A stretch of 32,000 nucleotides of DNA, from NCBI RefSeq assembly GCF_000017845.1, contig NC_010546.1, forward strand, positions 3,600,001-3,632,000, in the 5' to 3' direction. The notes under the pieces were generated by a model. That model searched no databases and was not told where the DNA came from. It was given only the letters and a program-made list of their open reading frames with translations. The stretch is from Crocosphaera subtropica ATCC 51142 (lineage in GTDB: Bacteria; Cyanobacteriota; Cyanobacteriia; Cyanobacteriales; Microcystaceae). Both the position numbers and the translations under genes were made by a program. This document shows positions 1 through 17,739 of this stretch, one piece after another (within the stretch, counting starts at the first letter, position 1; each line of letters begins with the position of its first letter).

Positions 1-1708
1 CAGTGGTTGGAAGCGGTTCGGGTTCAGGTTCAGAAGTTTGCTCAAGTTCGATTATGATTTCATCTCCATAAACTCGGCGCTCGGTATCGATTAGATTGTA
101 GTTGGCATCGAGAACGGGAAAACTATAAACAGGAGTGAAGGTAATCTGTGTTAGGTTCTCTTCAACCAGATTTTCTAAGTTAACTTCTAGATGTCCATAG
201 TGCTTGCCTCCAGCTACATTTTGAAGTACACCATTTACCTCTTGCCATAATTCTGCTTCGTCTTGGTCAGCAGTCCATTGACTAAACTCGTTGTAGCTGA
301 GGAGATTTCCGTTCTCATCGGTGCGTTGTCCGCGCATTCCGTCTCCGGCCACCCCCACATCGTAGTAGTAAACCCCTTCTCCGTCGTTATCTTCATCGAC
401 AAAGCTACGCTCGAACATTTCGCTATGACCAGAGAAAACCGCGACCACACCATATTCTTCAAACAGAGGATGATATTGACGCATCGGCGTTCCCCCCTGA
501 CCAGAAGAATCTTCATGATTCATCGGTAAGCCATGAGTCCCGTTAGAGTAAGGAGCATGGTGGAACTGTGCAAAGATGATTTGTCCTTGTTCGCGAGCCG
601 ATTCTAACTGTTTGATCGCCCAATTCCATTGAGGACTACCAGGGTTGAAGTCTGCTAAATCCGTACCCCCTGCTGCTTCATACTGTTCACGGGTGATGTT
701 CTCTTGAGTATCCGTTCCAGGTCCAGTATATTCTTGACCGCTAATTTGAGGGGGTTGTCCTTCCCCCCCATAGTTGTTACGGTTATCGTCTGGTTCACCG
801 TTGGAGCTATCGAGAGTCAGAATCGTTATGGGTCCGTAATCAATACGGTAGTAATTATCTTGATGTTCGGGAGTGCCATTGTCTGGCGCATCGAAATAAA
901 CATCGTATTTTTCGCGACCAAATAAGGGCCCATACCGTCCGTCTGGGTCAGTTCCATAACCTCCGTTGAGTGCGCCAAAGTTCTCCCAGTTACCTAAAGC
1001 TGGTAGGATGGGGTACTCAGACAAGCCACTGTCAAACTCACCGGCATTATGACGGAAAAATTCATCCCAAGCCGGTTGATAACCACCCCCTTGAATTAAA
1101 TCTCCTGGCATCATCATAAAGTCGGGTTCTCGGCTGTTGATGATTTCCAGGTTGTTTCTGTAACCGACATTTTCTGTTAAGGGATAGTTAAGGCTATCGC
1201 CAGAAACCCCAAAAGTCTCTGCCCAAAGACTACCTTCTATATCTGGACGCAGTAAAGATTCTTCCTCTAAAGCGCCCTGTTGCCAATCACGACGATTAAC
1301 TCGACCGCGAGGTTCGGTTTCGCTGTCTGAAAGCACCACAAAGCGAATCTGATCCCAGTCTTCAGCAGTAGGGGCTGTCTCAAAGCTAGATTGAAAAGTA
1401 TCATCTCCAACTGTCACCGAATACTCGTAAGTGCTGTCCGGCAACAGATCCCTTATGTCTAAAGTGTGCTTATAGTTTTCATTGTCAAGCAACCATGATC
1501 CTGATTCTAAACCGTCAATCTCTTGATTTAACTCAGCATCAGTGTAACTAAGGATTGGCTCAAATGTGGGGTTAATGGTAAAGGTTAGGGGAACATTCAA
1601 TCCTGGTCCTGTAATTGATACTTCACTCGAAATATTGTCTTCGGTGAACCAAGTGATGTAAGTTCCATCGCTAGAGGGCTGTTGTAAATAAGGGTTAATG
1701 CGAAACAT
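1..1708 (-). CDS. Purple-acid-phosphatase-like metallophosphoesterase, with its 3' end cut by the left window edge
   Basis: It is absent from the ORF track because no stop codon lies in the window. My own minus-strand translation from the ATG at 1708..1706 stays open to position 1: MFRINPYLQQPSSDGTYITWFTED...FVVLSDSE...PGDLIQGG...LGNWE...AQFHHAPYS...FSGHSEMFE...EQTSEPEPEPLPTT. The order of metallophosphatase motifs is preserved behind a PAP-type N-terminal beta-sandwich (STYEYSV). There is no N-terminal signal peptide. Confidence 0.8.
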   Translation of the reverse strand, partial: MFRINPYLQQPSSDGTYITWFTEDNISSEVSITGPGLNVPLTFTINPTFEPILSYTDAELNQEIDGLESGSWLLDNENYKHTLDIRDLLPDSTYEYSVTVGDDTFQSSFETAPTAEDWDQIRFVVLSDSETEPRGRVNRRDWQQGALEEESLLRPDIEGSLWAETFGVSGDSLNYPLTENVGYRNNLEIINSREPDFMMMPGDLIQGGGYQPAWDEFFRHNAGEFDSGLSEYPILPALGNWENFGALNGGYGTDPDGRYGPLFGREKYDVYFDAPDNGTPEHQDNYYRIDYGPITILTLDSSNGEPDDNRNNYGGEGQPPQISGQEYTGPGTDTQENITREQYEAAGGTDLADFNPGSPQWNWAIKQLESAREQGQIIFAQFHHAPYSNGTHGLPMNHEDSSGQGGTPMRQYHPLFEEYGVVAVFSGHSEMFERSFVDEDNDGEGVYYYDVGVAGDGMRGQRTDENGNLLSYNEFSQWTADQDEAELWQEVNGVLQNVAGGKHYGHLEVNLENLVEENLTQITFTPVYSFPVLDANYNLIDTERRVYGDEIIIELEQTSEPEPEPLPTT

Positions 1709-1832
1709 AATTCAAGTACACCTTTGTTGAAATTTGATGAATTAAAAAAAATACGAAATTCTTGATTAATCTTGTTTTTGTGAGACAAGGAAGGGAATGC
1801 TAGTTAGTATGTATCGAGTTTTTTGATCACCA

Positions 1833-1869
1833 TTTCAGGATTTTCTGTCATCACAAAAAAATCCCGAAA
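1833..1869 (-). promoter_or_regulatory. Conserved stem-loop, copy a (arms TTTCAGGATTTT / AAAATCCCGAAA, 13-nt loop), between the gene 2 terminator and the gene 1 start
   Basis: I read a 12-bp inverted repeat directly. The single A.C mismatch on the plus strand becomes a U.G wobble in the minus-strand RNA. It shares its stem core with the copies at 4239-4265 and 4973-5007. Confidence 0.5.
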
Positions 1870-1879
1870 ATTAACCATT

Positions 1880-1907
1880 AAAAAAAGGAGTAGGTATTAC
1901 CCACCCC
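1880..1907 (-). terminator. Rho-independent terminator of the PhoA-RTX gene
   Basis: The minus-strand RNA reads GGGGUGGGU-AAU-ACCUACUCC (G.U wobbles allowed) and begins 9 nt after the stop codon. A U7 tract follows it (A-run 1880-1886 on the plus strand). Confidence 0.75.
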
Positions 1908-1916
1908 AAAAAATGA

Positions 1917-2440
1917 TTAAGCAAACACAAAATCTGCCGCAGTTAAGTCAGTAGAATTAATACCTCTTAAGACCGCTAAATCTTGTCCTAAAGCATTAAT
2001 GGTGGTATCGGCACCATTTTGAGTTAACATCAAATCGTCAAAACTGAGATCCGTTGCCCCAAAACCGATCACATCCTCACCGATGGTAAAGTCAGTGATG
2101 GTATTCGCATTAGCTGGTACATCAATGTCATCGTTGGTGAGCCAGAATTGATCCATTCCAGAACCACCAGTGACGATATTGTTACCTTCTCCTGAACCGA
2201 GGAATAAGATATCGTCCCCAGAACCTGCAAGGATGCGGTTATTGCTACCGGCAAAAATAATGTCGTCACCACTACCCAAGTCAATGCGACTGCGATCGCC
2301 ACCCGGAGCAAAACTAACATCGACAAAGTCATCCCCACTACCGGCAAAGAGGATCTGGTTATCCCCAATAAATCCGCTCTCTCCAGGATTTTCTGTATCA
2401 AAGAAATCAGCATCAGCAGTCCCGCGAACCATAGTGGGAA
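1917..2440 (-). repeat. C-terminal RTX/secretion cassette, copy 1 (DNA-level paralogue of 5051-5575)
   Basis: It is collinear with 5051-5575 at a constant offset of 3134 nt. One example is a 45-nt perfect run at 2013-2057 = 5147-5191. The protein segments [42 protein letters not shown]... and [42 protein letters not shown]... are near-identical. Confidence 0.9.
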
Positions 2441-4184
2441 CTTCGGGGGTTTCTTCTTGTAAAGGGGTTTCTCCTTGTAAAATGGCAGTGCGTGCTGTTT
2501 GTGCCAAGTGTACCAAATCTACATGATTGGGAATACCTGGTACTTGAACGCCATAGTTTTCAAAACCTTGACCAATAAAACCATCTAGGACTTCAGAACC
2601 AGCACCTTGATAGTAAACGGGAACGGGACGGTTGGAGTGAGAACCCCACTGATACTTATCTTCAGGGTCAGAGCCAAAATAATGACCAGCAGTAGCAGAA
2701 TCGAAAGCAGTAGTTAAAGCTTCAGCCCCATACTCTCGATAGAGAGCAGGGAAGTCTTCGGTTAAGGTCATGTAGTGGTCGTGATCGGCTGTCACGATTA
2801 AGAGATTCTCTTCCCAACCACCATTTTCCTCAATCCAATCAACTGTGACTTCGACAGTCTCGTCAATATCTCTAAATGTTCCGAGTAAATTATCCATATT
2901 ATTGTCATGGAGTACCCAGTCCATATCGCCCTGTTCTACAGCAAGGAAGAAACCATCTTCATCTTTGCTGAGAAACTCTAAAGAGGCTGCTGTCATTTCA
3001 GCTAGGGTAGGATTCTCATCTGCTTCGCGAGCAATGAAGTCTTCTATTGTTTCGCCAGGCATCAGCGGACGATTGAGATCGGGAGTTTCTCCTGCCCGTT
3101 GAGAAGAGCGATGGGAAAAAGTATTTAAGCCAGTGTTACTGTAGTCGCTGTCTGCGGTTACTAAGGGCAAGTTGCCGTTTTGTCCTCTAGCTCCATAAAG
3201 ACCGAACAAGCGATCGCCATCTTCTGGATTAAGTGCTTCTGCTGCCTCTAACAAAGTCTCTCCAGCATTAGGATTGCGCTCTAAAAAATTGTAGCCGTAG
3301 AGATTATCGCCATCAGGATTATTGCTTAGTTCCTCATAGGTAGACTCAGCAATATAGACAAAGTTAAGCTCACCACCCATTTCTGAGTCCGTGTTGTTGT
3401 AGTCGAGAGGATGACCACCACCGAGAATAAGATCGGGTTGTATTTCTAACAGCATTTGCTGCGTGACGCTATCACCAGCCTCAAATTCCTCTCCTTCTAA
3501 AGCACCTTCAGGGATGCCGTCATCTAGCTTACCTCGGTTGTTAACGTGAGAAGCAGTTGCAGCAGGGGTGGCATGGCTGAAAGGAACGCTAGAAACTGTA
3601 CCTGTAGCTTTTCCTTGTGCTTTGGCAGTTTCGAGAATGGTTTCCACTGGCTGCTCGAAAATGTCAACTCCTAAAGCTCCAGCAAATGTCTTAACTCCCG
3701 AATAGAGAGACGTGCCAGCAGCAGCAGAGTCAGTAAAGTTTTGCTTGATGTATTCCGGGTTAGAACCTTGAATCCAAGGTTGAGGACCGCCTTGCTGAGG
3801 ATCATAACCAACGAGATTACCTACCCCTGGAAAGTCTTCATTGGCATAGGGGTTAAAGCTAGGATCGAAGCCAGTTGAGCTATCATCTGAATCCCTTGGC
3901 AAGGTAAATCCTTCACGCAGTTCGCCTTCACCAGTAACGCGGTCTCTAGGATCTCCCTCAAAGGCTGAATTACCTATGTCACCGTCAATAATTGTTGAAT
4001 AAGTAGTGGCATTGGTGTAGCCTTCTAGTTCTTGAAAGCTCAGTCCTTCGCCTTTACCCTCTGTATAGAAATCCTCTAAAGTATTTCCTTGGTGTCCTTC
4101 GTCAATTTGTTTGGCAATGGCAGCAGCACGAACCATTTCCCAGCCCATACCATCACCGACAATCATAATGACATTCTTGGCCAT
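1917..4184 (-). CDS. phoA: PhoA-family alkaline phosphatase fused to a C-terminal RTX-type Ca-binding cassette (755 aa)
   Basis: The canonical AP motifs appear in order: MIVGDGMG (Asp51 equivalent), [17 protein letters not shown] (D-S-A nucleophile), [14 protein letters not shown] (E/D/H metal ligands), VTADHDH and WGSHSN. The C-terminus carries GGxGxD-like repeats ([28 protein letters not shown]). The catalytic domain starts at residue 5, so there is no signal peptide. Confidence 0.92.
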   Translation of the reverse strand: [755 protein letters not shown]

Positions 4185-4238
4185 GATTTCAATTACCTTT
4201 AGTTTGTTAGGGTGTGTAAATTTTTGCAGAGAAAATGG

Positions 4239-4265
4239 CAGAATTTTTGATAATAGAAAATCCTG
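4239..4265 (-). promoter_or_regulatory. Conserved stem-loop, copy b (CAGAATTTT / AAAATCCTG, 9-nt loop), in the 5' leader/promoter region of the PhoA-RTX gene
   Basis: It lies 55-81 nt upstream of the ATG at 4184. The stem core is the same as in copies a and c. The one A.C mismatch again becomes U.G only in the minus-strand transcript. Confidence 0.45.
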
Positions 4266-4409
4266 AAATATTTACTGTCTTTTTAGTTGCAAACTTTGCC
4301 ATTAAAGAATTACTTATAATCTAAGCCTCTATCTCTAACAACACGCTTATGATTCTTCCCAAGAGAATATTTTTCTTATGGAAATTTTAAGCAAATTTTG
4401 ATCCGTTTT

Positions 4410-4463
4410 AAGAGTAAAACAATAAACTTATTATTATGAATTTTGAAAGTTTATTTTACTCTT
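4410..4463. repeat. Imperfect long inverted repeat in the ORF-free spacer (AAGAGTAAAACAATAAACTT ... AAGTTTATTTTACTCTT)
   Basis: I read the arms directly. They are about 17-20 nt long with a one-base indel and a 17-nt AT-rich loop. Confidence 0.5.
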
Positions 4464-4972
4464 CTTTAAGGAAAAAATAGTTTACAAAAGACACTTCTCT
4501 GACTCGATTTCATAATAGCGTTTTTAGGTATCGGTAAGGTTATTATTTGGTTAATAACCAATTATTTTTTTTATAAAATTTAAACAAGTTTAGTTTAAGT
4601 CATGTCTTTATTTTATACTTACTTGCTTATTATTTTTTAATCTTTTAAAGAAGAAACAAGAATGAAATATGCTGACTATTTCGCCTTTATTGTCTAAGCT
4701 AGCTAATTTTGTCGAAGATTTAAACTATAGATTTATGTCGTTTGCTTGATTAATACTAAATCCGCTTATTATCGTAGAGTAATCTTCTTTCTCCCCCTGC
4801 TTTCTCAAGATGATTGTCTACTGTCTATAGCGGATCTAGTATAATTTGATTAGCAAAAACTTGGTTTATTATAAACTGAGAAATAATAAAATTAGCGAAA
4901 TATTATAAATACATAAAATTAATATTACTTTTCACTAAAAAATGATTATTAATTTTTTATTCTTTATTAAAA

Positions 4973-5007
4973 ATTCCAGGATTTCTAATTACTAAAAATC
5001 CTGGAAT
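4973..5007 (-). terminator. Conserved stem-loop, copy c (ATTCCAGGATTT / AAATCCTGGAAT, 11-nt loop); second terminator-like hairpin after the 1976-aa gene
   Basis: The 12-bp stem is perfect. In the minus-strand RNA it is followed by UUUUAAUAAAG. Confidence 0.6.
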
Positions 5008-5010
5008 CTC

Positions 5011-5037
5011 GTTAATTAAAGGTAGGGAATACCTACC
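5011..5037 (-). terminator. First terminator hairpin after the 1976-aa gene
   Basis: The stem is GGTAGG-gaata-CCTACC at 5021-5037, 13 nt after the stop codon. UUUAAUUAAC follows it in the RNA. Its position is homologous to the terminator at 1880-1907. Confidence 0.55.
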
Positions 5038-5050
5038 CCTAAAAATACAA

Positions 5051-5575
5051 TTAAGCAAAAGCAAAGTCAGATGAACTCAAATCAGTAGAATCAATGCGTC
5101 GTAAGATAGCTAAATCTTGTCCGAGAGCATTGATGGTTGTATCTAAACCATTTTGAGTTAACATCAAATCGTCAAAACTGAGATCCGTTGCACCAAAGCC
5201 GATCACATCTTCCCCGATGGTAAAGTCAGTGATGGTATTCGCTTCAGTGGGTAAGGCTTCTGCATCAGTAACAATCCAGAATTGATCCATTCCAGAACCA
5301 CCAGTAACAACATTGTTACCTTCACCAGAACCCAGGAATAAGATATCGTCTCCTGAACCTGCAATGATGCGGTTATTGCTACCGGCAAAAATGATGTCAT
5401 CACCGCTACCCAAGTCAATGCGACTGCGATCGCCACCAGGGGCAAAGGTAACATCAACAAAGTCATCACCAGAACCTGCAAAGAGAAGCTGATTATCACC
5501 AATAAATCCACTATCTCCAGGATCTTCGGTGTCGAAGACATCAGCACCAGCACTACCCCGTACCATACTGGGAAC
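5051..5575 (-). repeat. C-terminal RTX/secretion cassette, copy 2 (paralogue of 1917-2440)
   Basis: See copy 1. It ends ...[13 protein letters not shown], whereas copy 1 ends ...[13 protein letters not shown]. Confidence 0.9.
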
Positions 5576-8500
5576 TTCGATGGGTTCGACAGAAGTATCT
5601 TCGATAGTAACCGTTACACTATTCTCAGCAGTTGGTGCATAACCAATTTCATCAATTAAAGTGTAAGTGGTGGTTTCGTCTCCTTCCGTTACTTCATCTG
5701 CAACCGTCGTTAAAGTGATGGTTGCAAAGGTTGCTCCTTCATCGATGGTGATGGCAGAACGAGCTAATTCTCCTGCTTCTGGGGTTAACTGTTCCAAATT
5801 GCTGGCATTGGTTAAAGTAGGAGGAAATTCCACATCTCCGAAGGCATTATCGGAGTCTACCTCAGACCAAACCACCCGTAAACCACCTTCTGGGGCTGCT
5901 TCATCGAGGGTAAAGGTGAGGGTGTAGGTATCAGCATTTTCAGTAACGCTGGTCTTATCAACGGTTAAACCGACTTCAGAAATGATGCCTAAACGGGGAT
6001 CAACATCTAAGGGTTCCTGTAACTGGATCTTGATAATCTCGTTGTTGTCGATATCTCCTTCCCGTCCCATAGAGAAAGGATAGTTATTATCATTGGCCAC
6101 TAAGATGGTTTGCTCATCAATTACTAACACATCTTCAATAGTGACGAAGGGGAACCTAAAGGTGGTGTCCCCATCATTATTAAGGTCATCGGGATCGGCA
6201 ATGTTTAAGAGATCCACTAATTCGGTCTTTTCAACAAAGCCGTTTTCATCCACTTGGGAGAGATCCACCTTAAACAGTTTCTTGAACTCGGCTGCATCTC
6301 CTTGGTTGCCATCCCGTTCAATAATGATAAACTCATTATCGTTAATAGGAGTCATATCACCGATCGCATGGCTACCGTCTTCTAATTCGTAGTAACCCGC
6401 TAACTCATCAAGGAAGCTACCTGAAGCCACATCAAACTCATAGATCCGTAAAGCGTTCTCTGGATCACCCATGACACGCCCTTCTAACAGAGGATAAAGG
6501 GTCATTAAATCAGGACTATACCCTAACCCTTCGTAACCACGAGAACGGCTTAAATTAACTAAATCAGCGTTTTCTGGGTTATCAGGAGAACTAACAAAGG
6601 CTGCAGTGATTTTATCTAAAACTAACCGCGCAGTATCAGGGTTATCAGAGAATACACCATCCACACCCAAAGAATAGAATTGATCGTATTCCGCTTCTGG
6701 GTTGCCGTTGTAGTCATTAGCTAAGAAGACATCTTCATCACGGAAGGTGTAAGGATGAACCTGTAATCCTGCTTCGTGAGCGTCTTCTACGAGGGTTGTG
6801 GGTTCAAGAAGGTTATTATCACTGGTGCCAACAATACGACGTTTAGAGGGGCCAATACCATCAGCGTAAGTAGCAATTTCTGCTAACCCGTCAGGGGTAA
6901 TTAAATCGCTATAGGTGCGATCGTCACCATCGGCCACTAAATCGTAGGGCGCACCACCGCCGCCAATTAACTGAACCAAAGGAATATCAACCCCGGCCTC
7001 TGGCATAATGGTTTCCGAGAGTTCCTGGAGGTTGCTAACTTCAAAGGACTGGATGAAGATGCGATCAGGATCGGTAAATCCTTTTTCGACTAAGGTATCA
7101 ATCAGAATTTGCGAGGTATTGATATTAATGGGAGATCCATCAATAAAGGTTCCTTCTGTGGCAAAGAAGGTAGGGTGTTTGGTTTCGGGATAAATACCGA
7201 TTTGTTCCCCAGTGGTTGCTTCAATTTCATTGACGAGATCGATGATTTCTTCTAGGGTGGGAATTTCAAAGAAGAAATCATATTCGGTATTTTCAGGACG
7301 AATATCAGGAATCCGTTCTACAGCCCGTAATTGCTTAATTTCTTCTAAAGTAAAGTCTTCTGAGAACCAACCGGTAAAACTGGTTCCGTCAATGACTTTG
7401 GTGGTTAAGCGATCGCTAAACTGAGGTAAGAGATAAACGTTAGTTGAAGTTGAACTTCTATCAATGACGTATTCCCCATTTTCATCGAATAAGGGATTAC
7501 CATTTGCATCGGTTTCAACAACGGCTAAAGCGTTCTCATGACGGGCAATAAGTACCCCATCTTTGGTGGGAACTAAGTCCGGTTCGATATAGTCTGCACC
7601 GAATTCAATACCGAGATTATAAGCAGCAATGAGATCCCGACCCAAGAATCCTAAGGTATGTTCAGGGCGATCGCCACTAGCACCCCGATGGGCAATGACT
7701 AAGGGATCTTCGCCGTTTAAGGTGTTGAAGTTGTAAATATTAGGAGTGGCAATAGGTGCGCTGAGTAATTCCCCATCTAAGTTAAATTCCAGGAGATAAG
7801 GACCAAATTCTTCCCCGATCCAAATGCGATCGTCGGTGACTACGATAGATTCAACGTCAAAATCTGCCCCAGTTAAGAATCTTTCGGTGGTGCCTTCACT
7901 AACAATATCAAAGGGGATGAAATTGTTAGGATCAGACAGTTGAATAAAGTCTAAAACCTCTGCCTCGCCGTTTCCTCCGTCTTCAGTTTGGAAGTTAGGA
8001 TCAACTTTGAAGATTCTTAAGAGATAATCATCACTATTGGCTTTCGATCCATACCCATTATCCGATAAAAACCAATAGTTACCATCTTCGGCAAATTGTA
8101 CCCCACTAAATCCTTGTACCGGTTGTTCAGCAAAGGGAACCTCACGGTTATCGGAATTAATGGAAAAACCAGAACCCCCAGGCAGTCCAGGTAAGAAGGT
8201 ATCCGCAGGTAAAGAAGAAAATCCCACTAAGGTAGCAATACTATCAGGATTAACCCCAAACAGGGTTTGATACATGATGTCATAAATTTCGGTATTGTCA
8301 ATGGTAGAAGACAATAACTCCGCATTCATGCCATAGGTTTTGGCTACAATGCTGCCAGGAAAGTCAGGGGTTCCTGCCCAAGCAATCCCAAAATTACCCA
8401 TTGGGCCATCAATACTATCCATAGCAGGAAAAGCGTCCCAGGGAAATTCTTCGCTTCCTGTGCTACCGGTTGCCCCATCTAGATAGTTAGGGGTATCGTT

Positions 8501-10981
8501 AGTGGTGGTAGGGTTAACATTAATGAAAGGAACTTGAGGTTCCGTATCTCCTAAATTTGGGTCACTGGTCAAATTACCAGAAGGACGGCTATAGGGGGCA
8601 AATTGAAAGACCTGCATTCCCCCTGCATCACTATCGGCAGCAGTAATGACTAAGGTATTAGGGTCTTGGGTATTGACATAGTCCATCGCTACTCCGATGG
8701 CAGCATCAGCCCGGCGCATGGCTTCGATGGTTCCAGGGGCATTGTTGCTGTTACCAAAGTTATCCGTTCCCTCTTCTTCTAAGACTGCAAAAAACCCATC
8801 GGGGTCATTTTTGAGGATTTTTAAGGAAGCCTCCAACATTTCCGCCACAGTGGGGGCTGTTGCTACATACAGAGGACTGGGATTATCTGTATTCAGTCCT
8901 AAGACTTCTTCCCTTGTAGCATCAAAGGTAGCATCGGCCGCAAACACCCCTAAGATTTTTTCGGGTAGGGTGTCTCCATTGACCACCTCATCCATTTGTT
9001 CTTCGGTATATACCACCGTATAACCCAAAGATTCAGCTAACTCAATTAAATTGATGCTAGGACGGCGTTCGGGGCGAGTTTCAGAGGCATCAATTTCGGC
9101 GGTAACGTGGAAACCAGTGGTGCCGATGGGTAGCATATAGAGTTCCCCACCCCCCATGATCACGTTGGTTCCGGAGCGAATGACCTGTTCGATGATTTCT
9201 GCGTACTTATCTCTAGCCCGAATATTGTCCCCATCTCGGTTGGTGGTTTTGGCAGCAAAAGCAGCACTTCCGGGTTCGGCTAAATGACCAGATTGGATCA
9301 AGGCGGTTGCTTTTCCAGCGGCGATCGCTTCTTCTAAAATGGTCATGCCCCGTTTTCCGGAGGCTGGAGTCACTTGAGAATTATCTCCATTGAGGCCAAA
9401 GGACTCATTAAACACTTTTACCCCATTAGCATGGGTCACGGCACCAGCATTAGAAGTTCCAGTTAATTGGTCTTCCATGTGGCCCAGATAAACCCCGGCG
9501 TTGGTCATGTTATCCCAGTTGAGGCGACCATCGGGACCGTGATCAATATTCCGTAGGGCCATGTAATGGGAAGGACTGGTACCGTCAGGGTGAATAAAGA
9601 TGACGTTCCCTGTGTTTTTGGTAGGAGTGGGGGCTGGGGTAGGGGCGGAATTACGAGCTTCTAATTCTACCTCGAATAAGGTTTCGTACATCAACTCGTA
9701 AATTCCTGTGTTATCTACCGTTGCAGGAAGTTTATCGGCATTGACCCCGTGAGCTTTGGCCACGATGGAACCGCTAAAGTCAGGGGTTCCAGCCCAAGCG
9801 ATACCAAAGTTAAACACATCCCCATCCACATCAGGGGCAGCTACAAAGGGGTCTGTATCGGCTCCAGTCTGCCCATCGAGGGGAACGGGTCGAGATTCGG
9901 TGGTAGGGTTATTATTAATCGTACCGACAGTTTGATCAGGATTACGGGGATCTCGTACTTGTAACCCACCGGCATCACTATCGGCGGCGGTAATAATTAA
10001 GCTGTTTTCGTACTTTTCATAGAATTCTAAAGCAACTCCAATGGCTGCATCACCGCGACGGGTTCCTTCTAACGTACCGGCTGCATTGTTATTGTTGCCA
10101 AAGTTATCGCTTCCTTCTTCTTCAACTACCGTAAATGACCCATTCTGGAAGTTAGGATGACTTTCGGCTAACTTTTGGGTCACTTCTAGCATTTCTGCTA
10201 CTGTAGGAGCCGTTTCTACATAAAGGGGTAATCCTCTTTCGGCTAACACTTCCTCTGGGCGATCGTTAAAGGTGTGAATGGGGGCAAATACCCCTAATAC
10301 TTTAGTGGGAGGTGTGGGGTATGTAGCGGGATCGAGCAACTCATACAGTTGCTCTTCAGTGTAGACAACGGTATAGCCTAAGCTTTCCGCCAGTTCGATT
10401 AGATTCTCGGTAGGACGACGTAAAGGGTTGGTGCTTAACGCATCTAATTCGGCTGCTGTGCCATGAAAGCCATCGGTTCCAATAGGTAAGAGGTTGAGTT
10501 CACCACCTCCCATAATAAAGTCCACTCCAGACTCGATCACTTGTTTGGCAATATCAGCTAACCGTTGCCGAGGAGGAATGCGCTGGCCATCAACTTCTAT
10601 TTCTCCCACTTGGGCTACAAAAGCAGCCGTTCCAGGTTCGTAAATGGCCCCAGATTGAACTAAAGCGGTTACCTTATTGGCTTCAACCGCTTCCTGCATA
10701 ATGGTTTTGCCTACATTGCCCGATAGAGGAACAATGGGGGTGTTACCTTCTTCGAGTCCGAAGGATTCTGCGTACACTTTTGCCCCGGTTGCATGGGTGA
10801 CAGCCCCCCCATTAGAAGTACCACCCAGTTGATCTTCCATATGACCGAGATAGACACCGGCGTGAGAAAGTTTATCCCAGTTGAGGTGGCCATCGGGTCC
10901 GTGATCCACAAATCGAGCAAAGCCGTAGTGAGAGGGGCTTGTGCCATCAGGATGAATAAAGATGACATGATTATTGTTCAT
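5051..10981 (-). CDS. 1976-aa multi-domain secreted-type phosphoesterase: two tandem atypical AP-like domains, a phytase-like propeller interrupted by a GDPD domain, a Calx-beta-like domain and an RTX cassette
   Basis: It is a single uninterrupted ORF. The domain motifs are listed in the sub-features below. There is no signal peptide, because the sequence [15 protein letters not shown] runs straight into the first catalytic domain. Confidence 0.9.
   Translation of the reverse strand: [1976 protein letters not shown]
5590..5990 (-). other. Calx-beta-like Ca-binding beta-sandwich
   Basis: The segment is [27 protein letters not shown]...[32 protein letters not shown]. It shows the G(E)T..i.v..v.D...EgdEt pattern. 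Confidence 0.5.
6040..6615 (-). other. Phytase-like region, C-terminal part (continuation after the GDPD insert)
   Basis: The motifs are [28 protein letters not shown] and [13 protein letters not shown]. The last is the DNNF-type terminal motif that also appears in the gene 4 phytase-like domain as [10 protein letters not shown]. Confidence 0.45.
6620..7700 (-). other. Glycerophosphodiester phosphodiesterase (GDPD, GlpQ-like) domain
   Basis: [19 protein letters not shown]...[24 protein letters not shown] closely parallels the E. coli GlpQ segment [15 protein letters not shown]...DYLEQDLVMTKDD.LVVLHD. The C-terminal segment VHPYTFRDE...[11 protein letters not shown] is also typical of the family. 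Confidence 0.85.
7705..8245 (-). other. Phytase-like (esterase-like activity of phytase) region, N-terminal part
   Basis: The motifs are [22 protein letters not shown] and [19 protein letters not shown]. They resemble the GGISGL...LSDD / EG..... pattern of the phytase-like family. Confidence 0.5.
8255..9615 (-). other. AP-superfamily (PhoA-like, atypical) domain B, an internal tandem paralogue of domain A
   Basis: The same motif series is repeated after a PTPAPTP linker: [58 protein letters not shown] and [18 protein letters not shown]. Confidence 0.65.
9650..10981 (-). other. AP-superfamily (PhoA-like, atypical) domain A
   Basis: [14 protein letters not shown] aligns with the GDGMG region. 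[17 protein letters not shown] aligns with the E. coli PhoA segment [31 protein letters not shown] and [10 protein letters not shown] sit in the positions of the metal-ligand segments. Confidence 0.65.
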
Positions 10982-11134
10982 GATTGTCGTAGTTAATCAC
11001 TCAGTAGTGTCTAAGAAACGTGATCAGTATTGAGGGCAATTTGACAGAAACATTTAAAATGCTCCTGTTAGAATTAAAGTAAGTAACAAGTTAAGGGGGA
11101 AAAATGTTGTCACTACAAGACAAAATGATCCCCT

Positions 11135-11166
11135 GAACGCAGGGAAATTTTATTTTTCCTGCGTTT
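11135..11166. promoter_or_regulatory. Palindromic stem-loop or operator candidate in the divergent intergenic region
   Basis: The sequence is (G)AACGCAGGGAAA-ttttat-TTTTCCTGCGTT(T). It has an 8-bp perfect core (AACGCAGG/CCTGCGTT) plus 4 further pairs including one G.T. It lies about 155 nt upstream of the gene 3 ATG. Confidence 0.4.
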
Positions 11167-11274
11167 CCTGAAAAAGCGTGATTTGAATTTAGATTAATCA
11201 GCACACATATAAAAATATATTGGTTCGTTAATTTTTGTCAAATGATTTTAAGTATTTTTAATGATTATTGTTAG

Positions 11275-11304
11275 CTTAAATTATACTTATAAACCTCTTA
11301 ACCT
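11275..11304 (+). promoter_or_regulatory. Candidate SphR/PhoB Pho box: three direct 8-mers with exact 8+3 spacing
   Basis: The repeats are CTTAAATT (11275), CTTATAAA (11286) and CTTAACCT (11297). They match the cyanobacterial Pho-box consensus PyTTAAPyPy(T/A) at 7/8, 5/8 and 8/8 positions, with 11-bp phasing. The background is AT-rich, so chance matches are plausible. Confidence 0.35.
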
Positions 11305-11568
11305 TTTAATAATTTTACTTGATTTTATATATAATTCTAATACTTTACCAAACTTTAACCCCATTATTATTTTGATTTAATCAACAAGTGCGAGTCTGTT
11401 AGTTGTGATTTGCAAAAAACTAAGTTAGTTGATGCTATCAAGAATTTTTTCTATAATTTGATAGTTTTTCGTGATTACATTAAAGCTATGATCAATCAAT
11501 AGCTTGTTTAATTGTGAAGGATTTATTTTATTTGTTTTTAGTTTTTATAATCTTGAACAGTTAAAGAT

Positions 11569-12700
11569 ATGATTCGTTTTGCTAGTTTTAATGCTTCTTT
11601 AAACCGTAATTCAGAAGGTGAATTAATTGCGGATTTATTGACCCCTAATAATGAACAAGGTCAAACGGTTGCTGAGATTATTCAACGGGTCAACCCTGAT
11701 GTTATTTTAATTAACGAATTTGATTTTGATGGAGTCGGTGATGCTGCTCAACTATACAGTAATAACTATTTAAACGTTAGTCAAAATGGGGTTAATTCCA
11801 TTGACTATCCTTATTTTTATGTTGCCCCATCTAACACAGGAATTGCATCAGGATTTGACTTAGATAACAATGGAGAAGTTGTTACAAATCCTGGAGAATT
11901 TGGCTATGGAAATGATGCTTTCGGCTTTGGCAACTTTCCTGGTCAATTTGGTATGGCAGTGTATTCAAAATATCCCATTGACTTTAGTAATGTTCGGACA
12001 TTTCAGACTTTTTTATGGAAGGATATGCCGGATGCTTTATTACCGGTTGATTCGGTTAGGGGGGAATCTTATTATTCAGAGGAAGAGTTAAATAGTTTTC
12101 GTTTATCTTCTAAGAGTCATTGGGATTTACCAATATTAATTGATGGAGAAACTGTCCACTTTTTAGTCAGTCATCCCACTCCGCCGGTATTTGATGGAGA
12201 AGAGGATAGAAATGGGAGAAGAAACCACGATGAAATCCGTTTTTGGTCAGATTATATTACTCCTGGAAAGGGGGGTTATATTTATGATGATCAAGGAAAC
12301 TTTGGGGGGTTAAAAGTAGGGGAAAAGTTTGTCATTGCAGGGGATCAAAATGCTGATCCTTTCGATGGAGATAGTGTTAACAATGCCATTAATCAATTAT
12401 TAGATAATCCTTATATTAATACCTCTGTTACCCCAGAAAGTGAGGGGGGTGTAGATGCTTCTAATAGACAAGGGGGAGTTAATGATAATCATATCGGTGA
12501 TCCTAAGTTTGACACAGCAGACTTTAATGATAATAACCCTGGTAATTTACGGGTAGATTATGTGTTACCTTCTGAAAATTTAGAGATTAAAGAAACTGGG
12601 GTTTTTTGGCCAACTTCTGATGATCCATTATTTGATTTAGTGGGAAATTTTCCGTTTCCTAGTTCTGATCATCGTTTAGTTTATACAGATGTTAATGTGA
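11569..12700 (+). other. Endonuclease/exonuclease/phosphatase (EEP) domain
   Basis: The motifs are [46 protein letters not shown] and the terminal [11 protein letters not shown]. Together they form the EEP N / E / D / D-N / SDH series. Confidence 0.8.
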
Positions 12701-15700
12701 AAAAGTCAATGATTGATTCAATTCGTAAAACAGTTCAAAGTATTAACTTTATCGGTGAGGTTAATTTCCCAACGGGTTTAACCTTTGAAGGGACAGAGTT
12801 TGGCGGTATTTCTGGTTTAGTTTATGATCACTTTAATGGGGTTTACTATGGTTTATCTGATGATCGCAGTCAGTTGAATGATGCCCGTTTTTATAGCCTC
12901 AATATCGATTTAAGTGATGGCATTTTAGACGGACAAGATATTACGTTTAATGGGGTTACCACGTTATTAGATGAAGATGGCAACCCATTTATTAATAATC
13001 GTATTGATCCAGAAGGGATTGCGTTAACCTCACGAGGAACTCTATTTATTTCTTCAGAAGGCAATGCTAATACATTACTTGATCCATTTGTCAATGAGTT
13101 TTCTTTATCTGGACAACAGTTTAATACGTTACCAGTCCCTTCTAAATTTTTACCAATAGCCGATCAAAGTAGTGGGATTCGGAATAATCAAGCCTTTGAA
13201 AGTTTAACTATTACTCCCGATGAACGATATTTATATACTGCTGTAGAAAATGCGTTATGGCAAGATGGAATTAACTCAACCCTAGAGAATGAAAGTGCGG
13301 TTAGAATTTTACAATATGACCTAAAAACGGGAGAAGCAGCTAAAGAATTTTTATATTTTACCGCTCCTATTCCTAATGATTCTAATCCCTCTGGGGGATT
13401 TGCTGATAATGGGTTAGTAGAATTATTAGCGATTGATAATACAGGAACTTTCTTAGCATTAGAACGCTCATTTGCTGCTGGTGTAGGTAACAATATTCGC
13501 CTCTATCAAGTTAACCTACAGGGGGCGACAGATATCAGTCAGTTTGATAGTTTAGCCATTGATCCTGATAATCCTAATGATGGCCTTTTTGATGTGGATT
13601 CGGTGGCACAAAAACGCTTATTAATTGATTTTGATGAATTAGGTATAACTTTAGATAACAGCGAAGCTTTAGCCTTCGGTCCAACCTTACCAAATGGTAA
13701 TCAATCTTTAATTGTTGTCAGTGATAACAATTTTAATGACAGTCAGTTTACTCAATTTTTGGCCTTTGAACTCGATATTAATTCTATTCCCTTTGTCACC
13801 CCAACCTTAGAAACCCCTTCAGAAATTCGTTATGATGATCCCACTGATTCAGAAGTAGTAGAAGGTTCGGACTCTGATGATCCAGCAATTTATATTCATC
13901 CCGATGATGTTGAACAAAGTTTAGTCATTACAGCATTAAAAAATGGGGGATTAGCAGTTTATGATTTAGACGGAAACGAACTACAAAAAATTGCCCCTGA
14001 TAATATTCGTTATAACAATGTGGATCTGGTTTATGGGTTTAACTTAGATGGGGAAAGTATAGATATCGCAGTTGTCAGCGATCGCCGAAATGATACGTTA
14101 GTAATCTTTGAAATTGATCCCACCACACAACAGTTGACGGATATCACATCTCCTAACATTTTAGAAAGCATTTTTGGGGTAGATGATGGCGAAGCAACTG
14201 CTTATGGTTTAGCGACTTATACCAGTCCCGTTACTGGAGAAGTTTATACCTTTGTTTCCCAAGCAGATGGAGATCAAATTGCCCAATTAAAATTAATATC
14301 AGACGGACAAGGTAACATTACGGCTGAAATTGTTCGTACTTTATCTGTTCCCATTCCTGATGGGGGTGAGGTAGAAGATGCACAAGTTGAAGGAATGGTC
14401 GTTGATCGAGAATTAGGATACTTATATGTAGGACAAGAAGGGTTCGGAATTTGGAAATTTTATGCCGAACCTAATAGCAGTGAGATAGGAACAATAGTTG
14501 ATACAGTAAAAGATATTAATCCTGATAGTAACTTAACCGCAGATGTAGAAGGATTAACCATTTATTATGGAGAAGATGGTCAAGGTTATTTACTCGCATC
14601 CAGTCAGGGAGATAGTTCTTTTGCTGTTTACGATCGCCAAGGAAGTAACTCTTATTTAGGTAACTTTGTGGTAGGAGAAAATAATGGAATCGATGGTGTA
14701 GAAGAATCTGACGGGGCCGATATTATTAATGTTGCGTTAGGGGATAAGTTTCCCAAAGGACTATTAGTCGTTCATGATGGATCTAATGAAAATGCAACGG
14801 TATTTCAAGATCCAGAAGATAGAGAAATTCAGAATTTTAACACCAATTTTAAATACATTGATTTGGAAGATTTAAGCGCAACTTTACCCTTCTTTAAACT
14901 AAATACAAAAGGATATGATCCCCGAAACCCTGTCCCCAACTCCCTTATCAATGGTATTGCAAGCGGTGACACCACCCAAAACAGTACGGTGTTATGGGCC
15001 CGAAGTACCTTCACAGGAGACGTAACCATTGAATACTCCACCGATGCTAACTTTTCCTCTATCATTGCAACCGAAACCCTCACTGTTACCGATCCTACCC
15101 TTCCCGTTAAAGTAGAAATTGAGAACTTAACCCCCAATACCCAATACTACTATCGTGTGACAGATGCCGCCAAAGATACCGCTATCGGGGAGTTTAAAAC
15201 GTCTGCGGAACTGGGAACTAACGTAGGGTTAACCTTTGGAGTCAGTGGAGACTGGAGAGGAGAGTTGGCCCCCTATCCTGCGATCGCCAATGCAAGCGAT
15301 CGGGATCTGGACTTTTTCGTTGAACATGGGGATACCATCTATGCAGACATCGAGTCTGATGCAGTGAAAAACCCCGATGGAACCCGTAAACAACAAGCAG
15401 AAACCATAGAAGAGTATCGGGCCAAACATAGCGAGGTGTATGACTCCCGTTTCGGGTTCAACTTTTGGGAGGAGTTACGGGCCAATACTTCCATCCTTGC
15501 AACCATCGACGATCACGAAGTCATCAACGACTTTGCCGGAGGGGCTAATGCAGACACCGATGATCGCTTCAGCGAAACAGAAGGGTTGATCAACGACACG
15601 GAACTCTTTGAAAATGGAATGCAAACCTTCCAGGAATATAATCCCCTCAGAGACGAATTTTATGGGGATGTAGGGGACGAAAGATTTAACGGGGAACGGA

Positions 15701-17739
15701 AACTCTATCGCTATAGTAACTATGGTAGTGATGCTGCTGTATTTGTGTTAGATACTCGTTCCTTTCGTGATGATGCGTTAGAGGGTCCCGAAAACTTTTT
15801 AGATACAGGCGATCGCTTAGAGGTTTTAAATCAGTCTTTGACGCAAGATAGAACCTTATTAGGAAGTGTGCAACTTGCGGATCTTAAACAAGACTTATTA
15901 GACGCAGAAAATAATGGGATTACCTGGAAATTTGTTATGGTTCCTGAACCGATGCAAAACATCTTTCCGGGTATCAATACGGATGCGTTTGAAGGGTATG
16001 GAAAAGAACGCACAGAAATACTCAAATTTATCAACGAAAATAGCATTGACAATGTGGTTTTTGTGGCTGCTGATGTTCACACCACTTTTGTTAATAATCT
16101 CACTTATCAAGAAGAACCAGAAGGGGAACAAATTGCTACAAATGCGTTTGAAATAACGACCGGTGCCGTTGCTTTTGAGCAACCAACTGGAGAAATATTA
16201 GGTAATTTATTTACAGCAGGAAATGCTAGTTTACAAACCTTTTATGATTCTCTACCGATTGCACCAGATACTGATGACCTTCCTAATGATAAAGACGATT
16301 TTGTTAAACAAGCAATCAACAATGTTTTATTAAATTCATTAGGATTTGATCCGTTAGGACTGAATAATAATCTACCCCAAGCAGAAGGATTAATTGATGC
16401 TACTTTGATACAAGGTGATTATTTTGTCGGTCATACTTATGGTTGGACAGAGTTTGATATTGACCCAGAAACACAGCAATTGAAGGTAATCACCTACGGA
16501 ATTGAGGCTTATTCTGAAGATGAGTTACTCGCTGATATTGACAATATTACTTCTCGTCAGCCGAAAATTGTTAGTGAATTTGTTGTTAATTCTACTGTCA
16601 ATGGTTCTTTTCCTAAAACGGTTAACGGAACAGATAATGATGACTTTATTGACTCAGTTGATCCTGATAATGGTTTCAATTTTAATGGCGATAATCAAAT
16701 TCTTTTTGCTGGTTTAGGTAATGATTTTATTGACGTTACTTTTGCACCAGGAAACAACATAATTAACTTAGAAGAGGGTGATGATATTGTCTTTTCAGGA
16801 AGCAATAATACGTTAAATGGAGGAGAAGGGAAAGACACCTTTTTTGTGGGAACTGGTGGAGGAAATAACACCATTACCGGCGGTGAAAATGCTGATGATT
16901 TTGTCATTGTCACCGATGAACAAGACTTACCCATTGAACCGAATATTATTACCGATTTTAATCCGTCACAAGGAGATAAAATCAGCTTACTAAACACCAG
17001 TTTTGATTATAGCGATCGCGGATCATCTTGGAATACCATTCAAGACAATAATGACACCGTTATCACTGTCTTTGATCAACGGGTTGCTATCCTCAAAAAT
17101 ACCGATGCAGATAGCTTGACTTCCGATAATTTCTTCTTTTCTAATACCAATAATAATAATAATAATGTAACCCCTATCACTGAAGAGGAAAACGAACCGA
17201 TCAATACTGATAATTCAAATGCCACAAATTCCGATCCAATTATAGAAAATAATGACCCCAATAATATCCCTCAAAGTGATGATCAAGGAGAATTATTTGA
17301 CTTAAGAGAATTTGTTGGAAGACAAGTTCAAGCTGACTTTTTAGTCAGTCGGAGTGCTAGTTACAACAACTTTATTGGCTTTTATGAAATTGATGATTTG
17401 ACAGGAAGAATTGATGGTTTAACCCCAGGAGAAGAGGGTTATCAAGAAGCTGCTTTATCCCGTCAGGTATCAGCAATCGGTTTACAGGTTGAGGACAATG
17501 AGACTGCTAATATAACAGAATTTTTCACAGGAGGAAGTATTTATGCTCCTTTTATGATTGTTAAAGGTACCCCTGAAACTTTGAGAAAATCATCATCAAT
17601 TTACTTCCCATTTTTAGGAGCAAATAAAGACAATAAAGATCGTGTTCGTCTCCTAGCTCAAAATGTATTTGGGTTTGAAGATTCTAGGGATTTTGACTAC
17701 AATGATCTTATCGTTGAGACAACTTTAACAGTTATTTAG
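11569..17739 (+). CDS. 2056-aa multi-domain secreted-type phosphoesterase: EEP, phytase-like, beta-propeller phytase, PhoD-like, RTX cassette, poly-Asn linker and DUF4114
   Basis: It is a single uninterrupted ORF. The domain motifs are listed in the sub-features below. There is no signal peptide or Tat motif, because [14 protein letters not shown] is already the EEP core. Confidence 0.9.
   Translation: [2056 protein letters not shown]
12740..13790 (+). other. Phytase-like (esterase-like activity of phytase) domain
   Basis: The motifs are [61 protein letters not shown] and [20 protein letters not shown]. Confidence 0.65.
13800..14870 (+). other. Beta-propeller phytase (3-phytase, BPP) domain
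   Basis: It runs collinear with Bacillus PhyC as I recall it. [11 protein letters not shown] matches [28 protein letters not shown] and IDIAVVSDR follow. [25 protein letters not shown] matches [59 protein letters not shown] matches [34 protein letters not shown]. Confidence 0.9.
14900..16520 (+). other. PhoD-like metallophosphatase domain
   Basis: [19 protein letters not shown] is the PhoD N-terminal GVASGDP..sVvLWTR motif. [41 protein letters not shown] and FVAADVHT complete the series. Confidence 0.8.
16627..17142 (+). repeat. RTX/secretion cassette, diverged third copy, here internal rather than C-terminal
   Basis: [24 protein letters not shown]...[11 protein letters not shown]...[45 protein letters not shown]...[12 protein letters not shown] is collinear with the cassettes of genes 2 and 3. 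Confidence 0.8.
17149..17166 (+). repeat. (AAT)6 in-frame microsatellite encoding poly-Asn
   Basis: I read it directly as ccAATAATAATAATAATAATgt. It lies within an N/D/P/E-rich low-complexity linker (about 17140-17280). Confidence 0.95.
17284..17736 (+). other. DUF4114-like C-terminal domain
   Basis: The terminal segment [20 protein letters not shown] matches the remembered DUF4114 signature (GFED....D.D.ND.v). An upstream segment reads [19 protein letters not shown]. Confidence 0.6.

Follow-up and report, generated by a model that had tools for sequence, protein, structure and literature searches.

The stretch of DNA analysed here (32,000 nucleotides, hereafter the window; contig NC_010546.1, positions 3,600,001 to 3,632,000) belongs to the chromosome of Crocosphaera subtropica (formerly Cyanothece sp.) ATCC 51142, a marine nitrogen-fixing cyanobacterium, and contains four adjacent genes, g1 to g4, whose products carry phosphoesterase modules. 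Reading from its ATG at 1708 on the minus strand, g1 runs off the window start and leaves 569 amino acids (aa) within the window; g2 (1917-4184, minus strand, 755 aa), g3 (5051-10981, minus strand, 1976 aa) and g4 (11569-17739, plus strand, 2056 aa) were taken from the list of open reading frames (ORFs). The same four ORFs had been delimited in a first-pass annotation made from the sequence alone, and both the ORF list and the reading of g1 bear out their coordinates. That annotation had named ten phosphoesterase modules, all of which were recovered by Pfam searches run on all four proteins, whole and in fragments. The original observation of a four-gene phosphoesterase block is confirmed. Its companion statement that more than half of the window is devoted to these genes is barely true, as they cover 50.2% as coding sequence and 55% as span.

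Given the unusual length of the predicted g3 and g4 proteins, we considered whether these giant ORFs arose through faulty assembly or annotation, as chimeras or as pseudogenes joined together. Nothing beyond this length speaks for such an origin. The g4 product is identical to ACB52843.1/WP_009545337.1, annotated as 'phytase' and encoded on a 4.93-Mb contig, and the reading frames are uninterrupted. Moreover, full-length orthologs of similar size are present in many independent assemblies (86–88% identity for g4 and 61–72% for g3, with 100% coverage in both cases), which argues against a chimera. The artefact explanation was rejected on the GenBank identity of g4 and these full-length orthologs, and we regard it as vanishingly improbable.

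The g3 protein opens with two alkaline phosphatase (AP)-like domains of the PhoA family, domain 1 (aa 1-455, 9617..10981; Pfam Alk_phosphatase, E 2e-23) and domain 2 (aa 456-905, 8267..9616; E 1e-34), all g3 features lying on the minus strand. They are tandem duplicates that belong to the same clade, and domain 2 matches the Vibrio alkaline phosphatase 3e2d (E 2e-18) with its residues aligned. A Phytase-like domain (PF13449) follows, represented by an N-terminal part (aa 906-1097, 7691..8266; E 2e-21, profile positions 1-111 of 284) and a C-terminal part (aa 1461-1650, 6032..6601; E 1e-29, positions 116-284 of 284). Between the two parts lies a GlpQ-type glycerophosphodiester phosphodiesterase (GDPD; aa 1098-1460, 6602..7690; E 4e-37), which covers the full PF03009 profile (positions 1-244 of 244). 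It aligns with E. coli GlpQ (1t8q, E 5e-34), including the HRGASG..PEHT and E.DL motifs, and scores 187 bits with the NCBIfam model PRK11143, under the 254-bit equivalog cut-off of that model. Judging from the profile coordinates, the Phytase-like region of g3 is one domain interrupted by the GDPD. Thus, the two phytase-like domains first listed for the block are both found, with the correction that the one in g3 is split by an insert. The chain ends with a spacer domain (aa 1651-1800, 5582..6031), for which no Pfam match was obtained even at E<=10, and a Gly/Asp-rich module (aa 1801-1976, 5054..5581) that ends in DFAFA.

In g4, whose features all lie on the plus strand, the first module is an endonuclease/exonuclease/phosphatase (EEP) domain (aa 1-385, 11569..12723; Pfam Exo_endo_phos, E 1e-30, 107 bits) with a C-terminal SDH motif visible in the translation; a comparison of this domain with PDB sequences returned no match. 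It is followed by a second Phytase-like domain (PF13449; aa 386-735, 12724..13773; E 2e-89, full profile), which matches designed beta-propeller proteins only in the PDB, and by a beta-propeller phytase (BPP, PF02333; aa 736-1115, 13774..14913; Pfam Phytase, E 7e-78, 263 bits) that aligns with the Bacillus phytases 1poo and 1h6l at E ~1e-60 (1poo, E 3e-60 over 311 residues). The fourth catalytic region consists of PhoD_N and PhoD (PF09423; aa 1116-1640, 14914..16488; 8e-17, 62 bits, and 5e-47, 161 bits, respectively). Its alignment with B. subtilis PhoD (2yeq, E 2e-24) conserves the GDxIY, DDHE and DVH motifs. It should be noted that the cysteine of the SCQ motif, reportedly an iron ligand in the B. 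subtilis enzyme, is replaced by Asp in g4, where VSGDW aligns with FASCQ. A module homologous to the g1-g3 tails lies internally (aa 1681-1860, 16609..17148; HemolysinCabind 23.3 bits, cut-off 23) and is 47% identical to that of g3. The remainder of the protein (aa 1861-2056, 17149..17736) is an Asn-rich linker with a C-terminal domain of DUF4114 type, ending in DFDYNDLIVETTLTVI. The last ~200 aa have no Pfam match of their own; they match the tail of the ortholog P0128 at E 5e-68, and aa 1985-2051 of that protein score 29.9 bits with DUF4114 (cut-off 27).

The catalytic part of g2 (aa 1-560, 2505..4184, minus strand) is a canonical PhoA-type alkaline phosphatase (Pfam Alk_phosphatase, E 6e-53). 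It aligns with E. coli PhoA (1y7a, E 3e-36) over the GDGMG, TDSAAA, D..H and TADHDH motifs, its motif columns read D-S-D-H-D-H, and it is canonical at Ser102, Arg166 and the zinc ligands Asp327/His331 and Asp51/Asp369/His370. Its C-terminal module (aa 576-755, 1920..2459, minus strand) ends in DFVFA.

The visible part of g1 (1..1708, minus strand), whose C-terminus lies beyond the window, reads as a two-domain metallophosphoesterase resembling purple acid phosphatase (PAP) and PhoD. An fn3-like N-domain (aa 7-103, nt 1400-1690) gives 21.6 bits with Pur_ac_phosph_N, below the cut-off of 30, and precedes a Metallophos core (aa 187-429, nt 422-1150) with a modest 28.1 bits (cut-off 21.5). The metallophosphatase motifs read LSD, GDLIQGGGY, GNWE, HH and GHSE, where GD, GDxxY, GNH[DE], H and GHxH are expected. 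With hhalign, the match to the PhoD family of g4 was local and limited to 54 columns, in which the N-domain ends and metal motif I lies (E 0.018); phmmer against the PDB at E<=10 gave chance thrombin matches only, and a single-sequence AlphaFold2 (AF2) model was unusable (pLDDT 31). The PAP-like identity proposed for g1 is therefore retained as the weakest module call of the set. The window edge falls exactly on the linker of g1. In Unicellular cyanobacterium SU3, the g1 ortholog has 739 aa, is ~94% identical (read from the alignment), runs into the same Gly/Asp-rich module and ends in DFVFA. Roughly 28 g1 homologs were retrieved; some of them, with 48–54% identity, occur in metagenome-assembled genomes (MAGs) of Limnohabitans and Algoriphagus (L031, L032 and L034), so the g1 family is not confined to cyanobacteria.

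We then compared the g3 AP pair with the PhoA family; the known alkaline phosphatase classes at large are PhoA, PhoD, PhoX, PhoAaty, PafA and Psip1 (review PMC11665274). Both domains align with the Vibrio and E. coli enzymes and are PhoA-like by sequence (PF00245), keeping Ser102, which is the nucleophile, Arg166, Asp51, Glu322, Asp327 and Asp369. Unlike canonical PhoA, they differ at H331N, H370S, D153E, T155G, K328N and D101T/S, and the alignment shows no His in the His412 region. With an incomplete zinc-ligand set, they are members of a PF00245 superfamily clade and not canonical PhoA. A cyanobacterial candidate for their identity, the 'atypical PhoA' PhoAaty, was rejected, given that PhoAaty has no similarity to PhoA/PF00245 (PMC11098088).

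To define this clade, which we refer to as the N/S clade, 1.84 billion representatives were searched and 79 domain instances were aligned with g2 as internal canonical reference. Domain 2 of g3 retrieved 97 representative clusters at E<=1e-30. Every full-length match better than ~E 1e-26 reads D-S-D-N-D-S, the canonical D-S-D-H-D-H beginning below that score. Among 54 domain instances of the N/S clade, drawn from clusters at 50% identity, His331 is replaced by Asn and His370 by Ser in all 54, Asp153 by Glu in 51, Thr155 by Gly in 52 and Lys328 by Asn in 53, while Asp101 becomes Thr or Ser; the six retained residues are essentially invariant. The AP motifs are likewise nearly invariant in the g3 family, in which 113 of the 120 proteins among the matches listed carry two AP copies. 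Single-domain members with N-terminal extensions were found in Thermodesulfovibrionales and Dehalococcoidia, annotated plainly as 'alkaline phosphatase'.

Because the substitutions are uniform across the clade, they are the signature of a remodelled active site and not of decay. The replacement of both zinc-binding His residues tested suggests a zinc-independent alkaline phosphatase. Sulfatases of the same superfamily have a calcium site built from Asp and Asn, and by analogy with them we infer a requirement for a hard cation (Ca, Mg or Fe) in the N/S-clade domains. A literature search for a His-less or calcium-dependent PhoA clade found no description, and the clade is apparently undescribed. 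Tentatively, and with the odds rather against it, the g3 pair may represent an undescribed and widespread PhoA-fold class with an all-oxygen-donor bimetal site that uses Ca, Mg or Fe and not zinc, in which case the whole block, with its calcium-dependent BPP, GlpQ, PhoD (Cys to Asp) and RTX modules, would be largely zinc-independent and calcium-activated, with g2 as its only zinc enzyme.

The same substitutions can be read in another way, namely that several modules are non-catalytic, the His-less AP pair and the PF13449 propellers being binding or scaffold parts, so that the number of active enzymes would fall well below ten. The replacement of both His331 and His370 in each g3 AP domain is what such a reading would predict, PF13449 has no characterised structure or activity (its PDB match being to designed propellers), and g1 departs from the GNHE and GHxH motifs (GNWE, GHSE). 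However, the invariance of the nucleophile and of the other retained residues over 54 instances, together with the clade-wide uniformity of the changes, is the pattern of a remodelled site, and no part of g3 is better conserved than the AP pair, with 75–82% identity to Nostocales. We therefore judge this explanation unlikely.

If the four proteins act outside the cell, their route of export deserves a closer examination. The first-pass annotation had proposed a common mode of export, and several features shared by the four proteins make this plausible as a prediction. They contain no Cys in 5,356 aa, compared with 1.03% in the other eleven proteins of the window (P ~1e-24), and Cys is equally absent from 114 of 120 g3-family and 109 of 119 g4-family proteins among the matches listed. 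All four are very acidic, with a computed isoelectric point at the floor of the calculator (4.05). Their maximum hydropathy, KD(19), is <=1.24, and neither a transmembrane-like segment nor a hydrophobic N-terminus was found. Because the catalytic cores start at residues 2–6, no more than five residues from Met1, and an upstream extension of the ORFs is impossible, Sec and Tat signal peptides appear to be excluded.

What the chains have in common instead is the Gly/Asp-rich module. The ~175-aa C-terminal modules of g2 and g3 share 84–87% nucleotide identity, and that of g3 exceeds the Pfam cut-offs for HemolysinCabind (PF00353, 27.6 bits vs 23) and Peptidase_M10_C (22.6 vs 20.7). In g2 both models stay below threshold (HemolysinCabind 17.4 bits, cut-off 23), with an NCBIfam match to the serralysin C-terminal region. 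An alignment-based AF2 model of the g3 tail reached a pLDDT of 96.5, and a Foldseek search of the PDB with this model gave 42 matches at E<=0.001, every one of them an RTX (repeats-in-toxin) beta-roll domain and almost all at probability 1.00. These include the PML and LipA lipases, PrtC, serralysin, AprA, CyaA block V and the AlgE R-modules, mostly from type I-secreted proteins. A D followed by F[VA]FA closes the tails of g2, of g3 and, in SU3, of the g1 ortholog; the g4 module has ~200 aa after it. For g1, the tail is deduced from orthologs, and for g4 the module is internal, two points at which the shared signature is incomplete. A homolog search with the 176-aa tail returned short fragments only, and no spectrum of cargo.

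The identity between the g2 and g3 tails extends over 1908-2441 and 5042-5575, including 9 nt past the stop codons, while the catalytic parts are unrelated in detail. This suggests a recent duplication or gene conversion of the tail cassette.

This organisation recalls the type I-secreted RTX exoenzymes, such as the serralysin, PrtC and AprA proteases and the lipases of Pseudomonas MIS38 and Serratia (LipA), which have N-terminal catalytic domains without a signal peptide, a Gly/Asp-rich beta-roll that binds calcium at the C-terminal end, an acidic and Cys-poor sequence, and an acidic residue followed by hydrophobic ones at the extreme C-terminus (DFVFA/DFAFA in g2 and g3). Unlike them, the chains here carry phosphoesterases and combine as many as five catalytic modules, where the RTX exoenzymes have one, no cognate ABC (ATP-binding cassette) or membrane fusion protein (MFP) genes adjoin the locus, the g4 module is internal, and secretion is predicted from sequence. 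A review of RTX proteins had counted predicted RTX phytases, phosphatases and phosphodiesterases (PMC3034196), and putative alkaline phosphatases appear in a study of the Anabaena secretome and the TolC homologue HgdD, as cited in PMC4390845. Compared with E. coli PhoA, B. subtilis PhoD, Bacillus BPP and E. coli GlpQ, the corresponding modules align over the catalytic core and key motifs; in contrast to those single-domain enzymes, they belong to fused chains of 81–226 kDa that are Cys-free and without Sec or Tat signals, and the PhoD of g4 has Asp for the SCQ cysteine.

The proteins could alternatively remain cell-bound, at the outer membrane or S-layer, or periplasmic, with the Gly/Asp-rich module serving calcium-dependent folding or attachment. 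RTX modules are known in cyanobacterial S-layer proteins (PMC3034196), g4 carries an extra DUF4114-type tail, and type I secretion genes are not adjacent. Against retention stand the lack of a Sec/Tat signal peptide, transmembrane segment or S-layer homology (SLH) domain, and the closest folds, nearly all of which belong to proteins released by type I secretion. We consider retention quite unlikely. The surface tethering suggested at first found no support, since no anchor, SLH domain or transmembrane segment was found and g4 has only its DUF4114-type tail.

Next, we looked for signs of phosphate-dependent control. Both strands of the whole window were scanned for three tandem YTTAAYYW units separated by 3-bp linkers, at a threshold of >=20/24. 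The 8-bp repeats of the cyanobacterial Pho box were defined as in PMC1906773, and their TTAA cores are required for PhoB binding by electrophoretic mobility shift assay (PMC11126600). Four of the six sites at or above threshold in the window fall within 11275..11383 (plus strand), 186–294 nt upstream of the g4 ATG, where Pho-box-like repeats with an 11-bp period form two runs. Dinucleotide shuffles of this intergenic region contain 0.15 sites on average, with 1 of 300 reaching the observed count, and four other AT-rich intergenic regions have none. The consensus CTTAACCT is present exactly in these runs, and a TATAAT, a -10 hexamer by its sequence, lies after the first of them (11330-11335).

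Upstream of g3, a weaker triplet was found on the minus strand at 11066..11095, 85–114 nt before the ATG, reading CTTAACTT gtt ACTTACTT taa TTCTAACA; with 18/24 by hand count it is below the threshold used for the statistics. Its block is almost invariant compared with loci L001 and L004, the L001 counterpart scoring 21/24, and similar triplets precede the g3 orthologs of L002 and L003. L001 and L004 also retain both of the runs upstream of g4 in their orthologous divergent regions. It is reasonable to expect from these motifs that g4 and g3 are under Pho control.

A precedent for such control is found in Synechocystis PCC 6803, where PhoB directly controls a type I secretion cluster with the RTX protein sll0721, the most abundant exoprotein of P-limited cells (PMC11126600). 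The parallel, drawn from its description and not from sequence, is that of a cyanobacterial RTX protein with Pho-box control, which is here only predicted. Unlike the phosphoesterase cargo of g1-g4, sll0721 is read as an exotoxin and its enzymatic content is undescribed.

Terminator-like hairpins were noted on the minus strand at 1887..1907 (a 9-bp stem followed by TTTTTTT, 10 nt past the g2 stop) and at 5023..5041 (directly past the g3 stop, with a weak consensus match), both argued from position only, as promoter and terminator consensus counts in the window do not exceed those of shuffles overall. Given that the stops of g3 and g2 are followed by hairpins with T-rich tails, the genes are probably separate transcription units. 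Between the two divergent Pho-box-like regions lies an inverted repeat (11136-11165, AACGCAGGGAAA-n6-TTTTCCTGCGTT) that is almost invariant in the L001 and L004 intergenic regions. It is unlike a terminator because no T-run follows, and could be a site for a dimeric regulator.

We also examined how widely these architectures occur, with gene neighbourhoods taken from the orthologs. The g4 architecture (EEP, PF13449, BPP and PhoD, usually with RTX and/or DUF4114) is that of all the 120 best clusters listed, out of 1,050 proteins at E<=1e-20, and most of these clusters show >=53% identity. Its range takes in Chroococcales, Pleurocapsales, Oscillatoriales, Leptolyngbyales and Nostocales, and SurE, GDSL-lipase or other modules are sometimes added. 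That of g3 occurs in Crocosphaera, Leptolyngbya, Egbenema and others. A short form of ~1,125 aa, with two AP-like domains and the RTX tail, is common in Nostocales and Chamaesiphon (75–82% identity), and other relatives have additional EEP, 5'-nucleotidase or PhoX modules, with lengths of up to 2,937 aa. Each giant architecture is represented by well over 100 clusters across cyanobacteria, annotated as 'phytase' or 'alkaline phosphatase'. Since both architectures are widespread and carry annotations already, the finding is less exceptional than it looked in the first-pass annotation.

The concentration of modules had been described as largely uncharacterised. Fusions of ~2000 aa are not peculiar to this locus, and experimental work on the giant fusions or on the cluster was not found in the literature searched, so that they do appear to be uncharacterised experimentally. 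At the level of annotation, the same GDPD/phytase-like and EEP-phytase-PhoD fusions are seen in the likewise uncharacterised Nodularia spumigena nsp6490, a fusion of a GDPD and a phytase domain (PMC3610870), and in entries annotated '3-phytase/alkaline phosphatase D'. Unlike these, four clustered genes with common tails and a Pho-box promoter are not described in the searched literature.

The synteny comparison across cyanobacterial genomes showed the full cluster in Crocosphaera-like genomes only: strain SU3 and Crocosphaera sp. MO_188.B44 have the complete g4<->g3-g2-g1 arrangement. As a pair, g3 and g4 recur in strain SU3, in C. chwakensis CCY0110 and in three Crocosphaera MAGs. In one Crocosphaera MAG, g2, g1 and an EEP-PF13449-BPP-RTX gene follow one another, and in Crocosphaera sp. 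Alani8 the catalytic part of g1 is fused directly to PF13449-BPP-RTX. In Nostoc PCC 7524, a gene for two AP domains and RTX adjoins one for RTX-PhoD-DUF4114, and the neighbours of the g4 ortholog in Myxosarcina are EEP-RTX, GDPD/PF13449 and phosphonate-transporter genes. Compared with the g3 of the window, that of SU3 (L029/L001) is 98% identical in the GDPD, 74–90% in the phytase-like parts and 89% in the tail, with 46–49% in the AP pair; this protein is apparently a mosaic in which the AP pair was exchanged as a cassette. The comparisons clearly point to modules being reshuffled between genomes. No protein labelled C. watsonii is among the best 120 matches of either the g3 or the g4 search, which hints that full-length orthologs are absent from this species.

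Further variants of the cluster were noted. In CCY0110 (L005 1626-4262), an 878-aa protein without Pfam match takes the place of g2 and g1 downstream of the g3 ortholog. The catalytic part of g1 is fused to a phytase-like domain in L013 (2035-4356), and L007 and L008 carry ~2 kb of extra sequence between the g1 core and the RTX tail; the coordinates of the variants with g1 fusions or insertions are L009 3989-8389 and L008 1-10193. The spacer between g2 and g3 (4185-5050, 866 bp, 26% G+C) has no ORF of >=150 aa and is probably dispensable, because the corresponding gap in MO_188.B44 is merely ~140 bp. G+C content across g1-g3 is 0.43–0.49 over most of positions 1-11000, dropping to 0.37–0.38 in this AT-rich spacer; g4 (0.34–0.42) and most of the remaining window (0.31–0.43) are both below g1-g3. 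The higher G+C of g1-g3 may stem from the amino-acid composition, or the segment may have had a different origin.

Outside the four genes, the window encodes a 664-aa protein-arginine deiminase (PAD; 20351-22345, minus strand; PAD_M and PAD, E 2e-152). Animal-like PADs are uncommon in bacteria. Its flanking genes are the ORFs 23363-23905 and 19098-20306, both on the minus strand; on one side lies a Na+/glutamate symporter and on the other, ~1 kb away and past a 141-aa ORF, a calcium-binding protein with four EF-hands. An Rfam scan of the window gave no match.

Taken together, we read the block as a phosphorus-scavenging island of four modular exoenzymes that would act on organic phosphorus outside the cell, a reading to which we assign a probability of about 0.7. 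The modules cover monoesters (the canonical PhoA, the two His-less PhoA-family domains and the PAP-like metallophosphatase), diesters (GlpQ-type GDPD, PhoD and EEP) and phytate (BPP), alongside two PF13449 propellers to which no chemistry is assigned. In this scheme, in which we infer the induction by low phosphate, the secretion route, the metal usage and the substrates of g1-g4, phosphate starvation would lead PhoB/SphR to bind the tandem Pho boxes of the promoter region between the divergent g3 and g4. The Cys-free acidic chains, devoid of an N-terminal signal, would be exported unfolded and in one step by a type I system (ABC/MFP/TolC) encoded elsewhere. Outside the cell, calcium would fold the beta-roll and activate the calcium-dependent BPP, GlpQ, PhoD and probably the His-less AP, and the modules would then release orthophosphate from dissolved or particulate organic phosphorus. 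The apparatus for scavenging organic phosphorus proposed in the first-pass annotation is thus partly supported.

Secreted RTX exoproteins could also have a mainly non-nutritional role, in competition, remodelling of biofilm or extracellular polymeric substances, or defence, for example as nucleases or by degrading phospholipid headgroups or extracellular DNA, with phosphate as a by-product. EEP and GDPD families act on nucleic-acid and lipid-derived diesters in other systems, the authors who described the PhoB-controlled RTX protein of Synechocystis regarded it as an exotoxin (PMC11126600), and the window contains no pst or pho transport genes. However, a monoester, diester and phytate set with a true BPP, PhoA and PhoD is hard to rationalise except as phosphate release, the Pho-box-like sites are conserved, and the Myxosarcina ortholog lies among phosphonate transporters. 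A mainly non-nutritional role is therefore improbable in our view. This, the partly non-catalytic and the cell-bound explanations are all less well supported than the scavenging of organic phosphorus.

It should be noted that several observations weigh against scavenging by Pho-controlled, type I-secreted enzymes. As regards export, the Foldseek TM-scores of the g3 tail are moderate (TMq 0.4–0.5), the RTX module of g4 is not an extreme C-terminal signal because ~200 more residues follow it, and no type I secretion genes were found in the 32-kb window (the rest of the genome was not searched); nor do ABC transporter, MFP or TolC genes lie beside the orthologs examined. As regards regulation, the Pho-box scan counts matches to a consensus in DNA of 27% GC, no site above threshold precedes g2 or g1, and a Pho-box-like site was found at 1 of 19 loci with a g1 homolog, all of which except L013 lack a related module nearby. 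Finally, the literature search found no paper naming the locus tags cce_3492-3496, and the annotated AP genes of C. watsonii are not induced by low phosphate (PMC11665274).

Dissolved organic phosphorus (DOP) sustains nitrogen fixers in phosphate-poor seas, and the enzymes with which Crocosphaera hydrolyses it are still unknown according to a 2024 review (PMC11665274). The locus offers testable candidates, namely four co-located exoenzymes that together would cleave monoester, diester and phytate bonds, and for which a Pho-box promoter and one-step export are predicted. More generally, cyanobacteria appear to recombine Cys-free, RTX-tagged phosphoesterase modules from a common set into chains of 1,100–3,000 aa. 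If the N/S clade proves to be active with calcium or iron, the zinc demand estimated for alkaline phosphatase activity would have to be revised, as would gene-based surveys of marine phosphatases; a zinc-independent system would moreover bear on the proposed Zn-P co-limitation of marine diazotrophs and on DOP hydrolysis by Crocosphaera.

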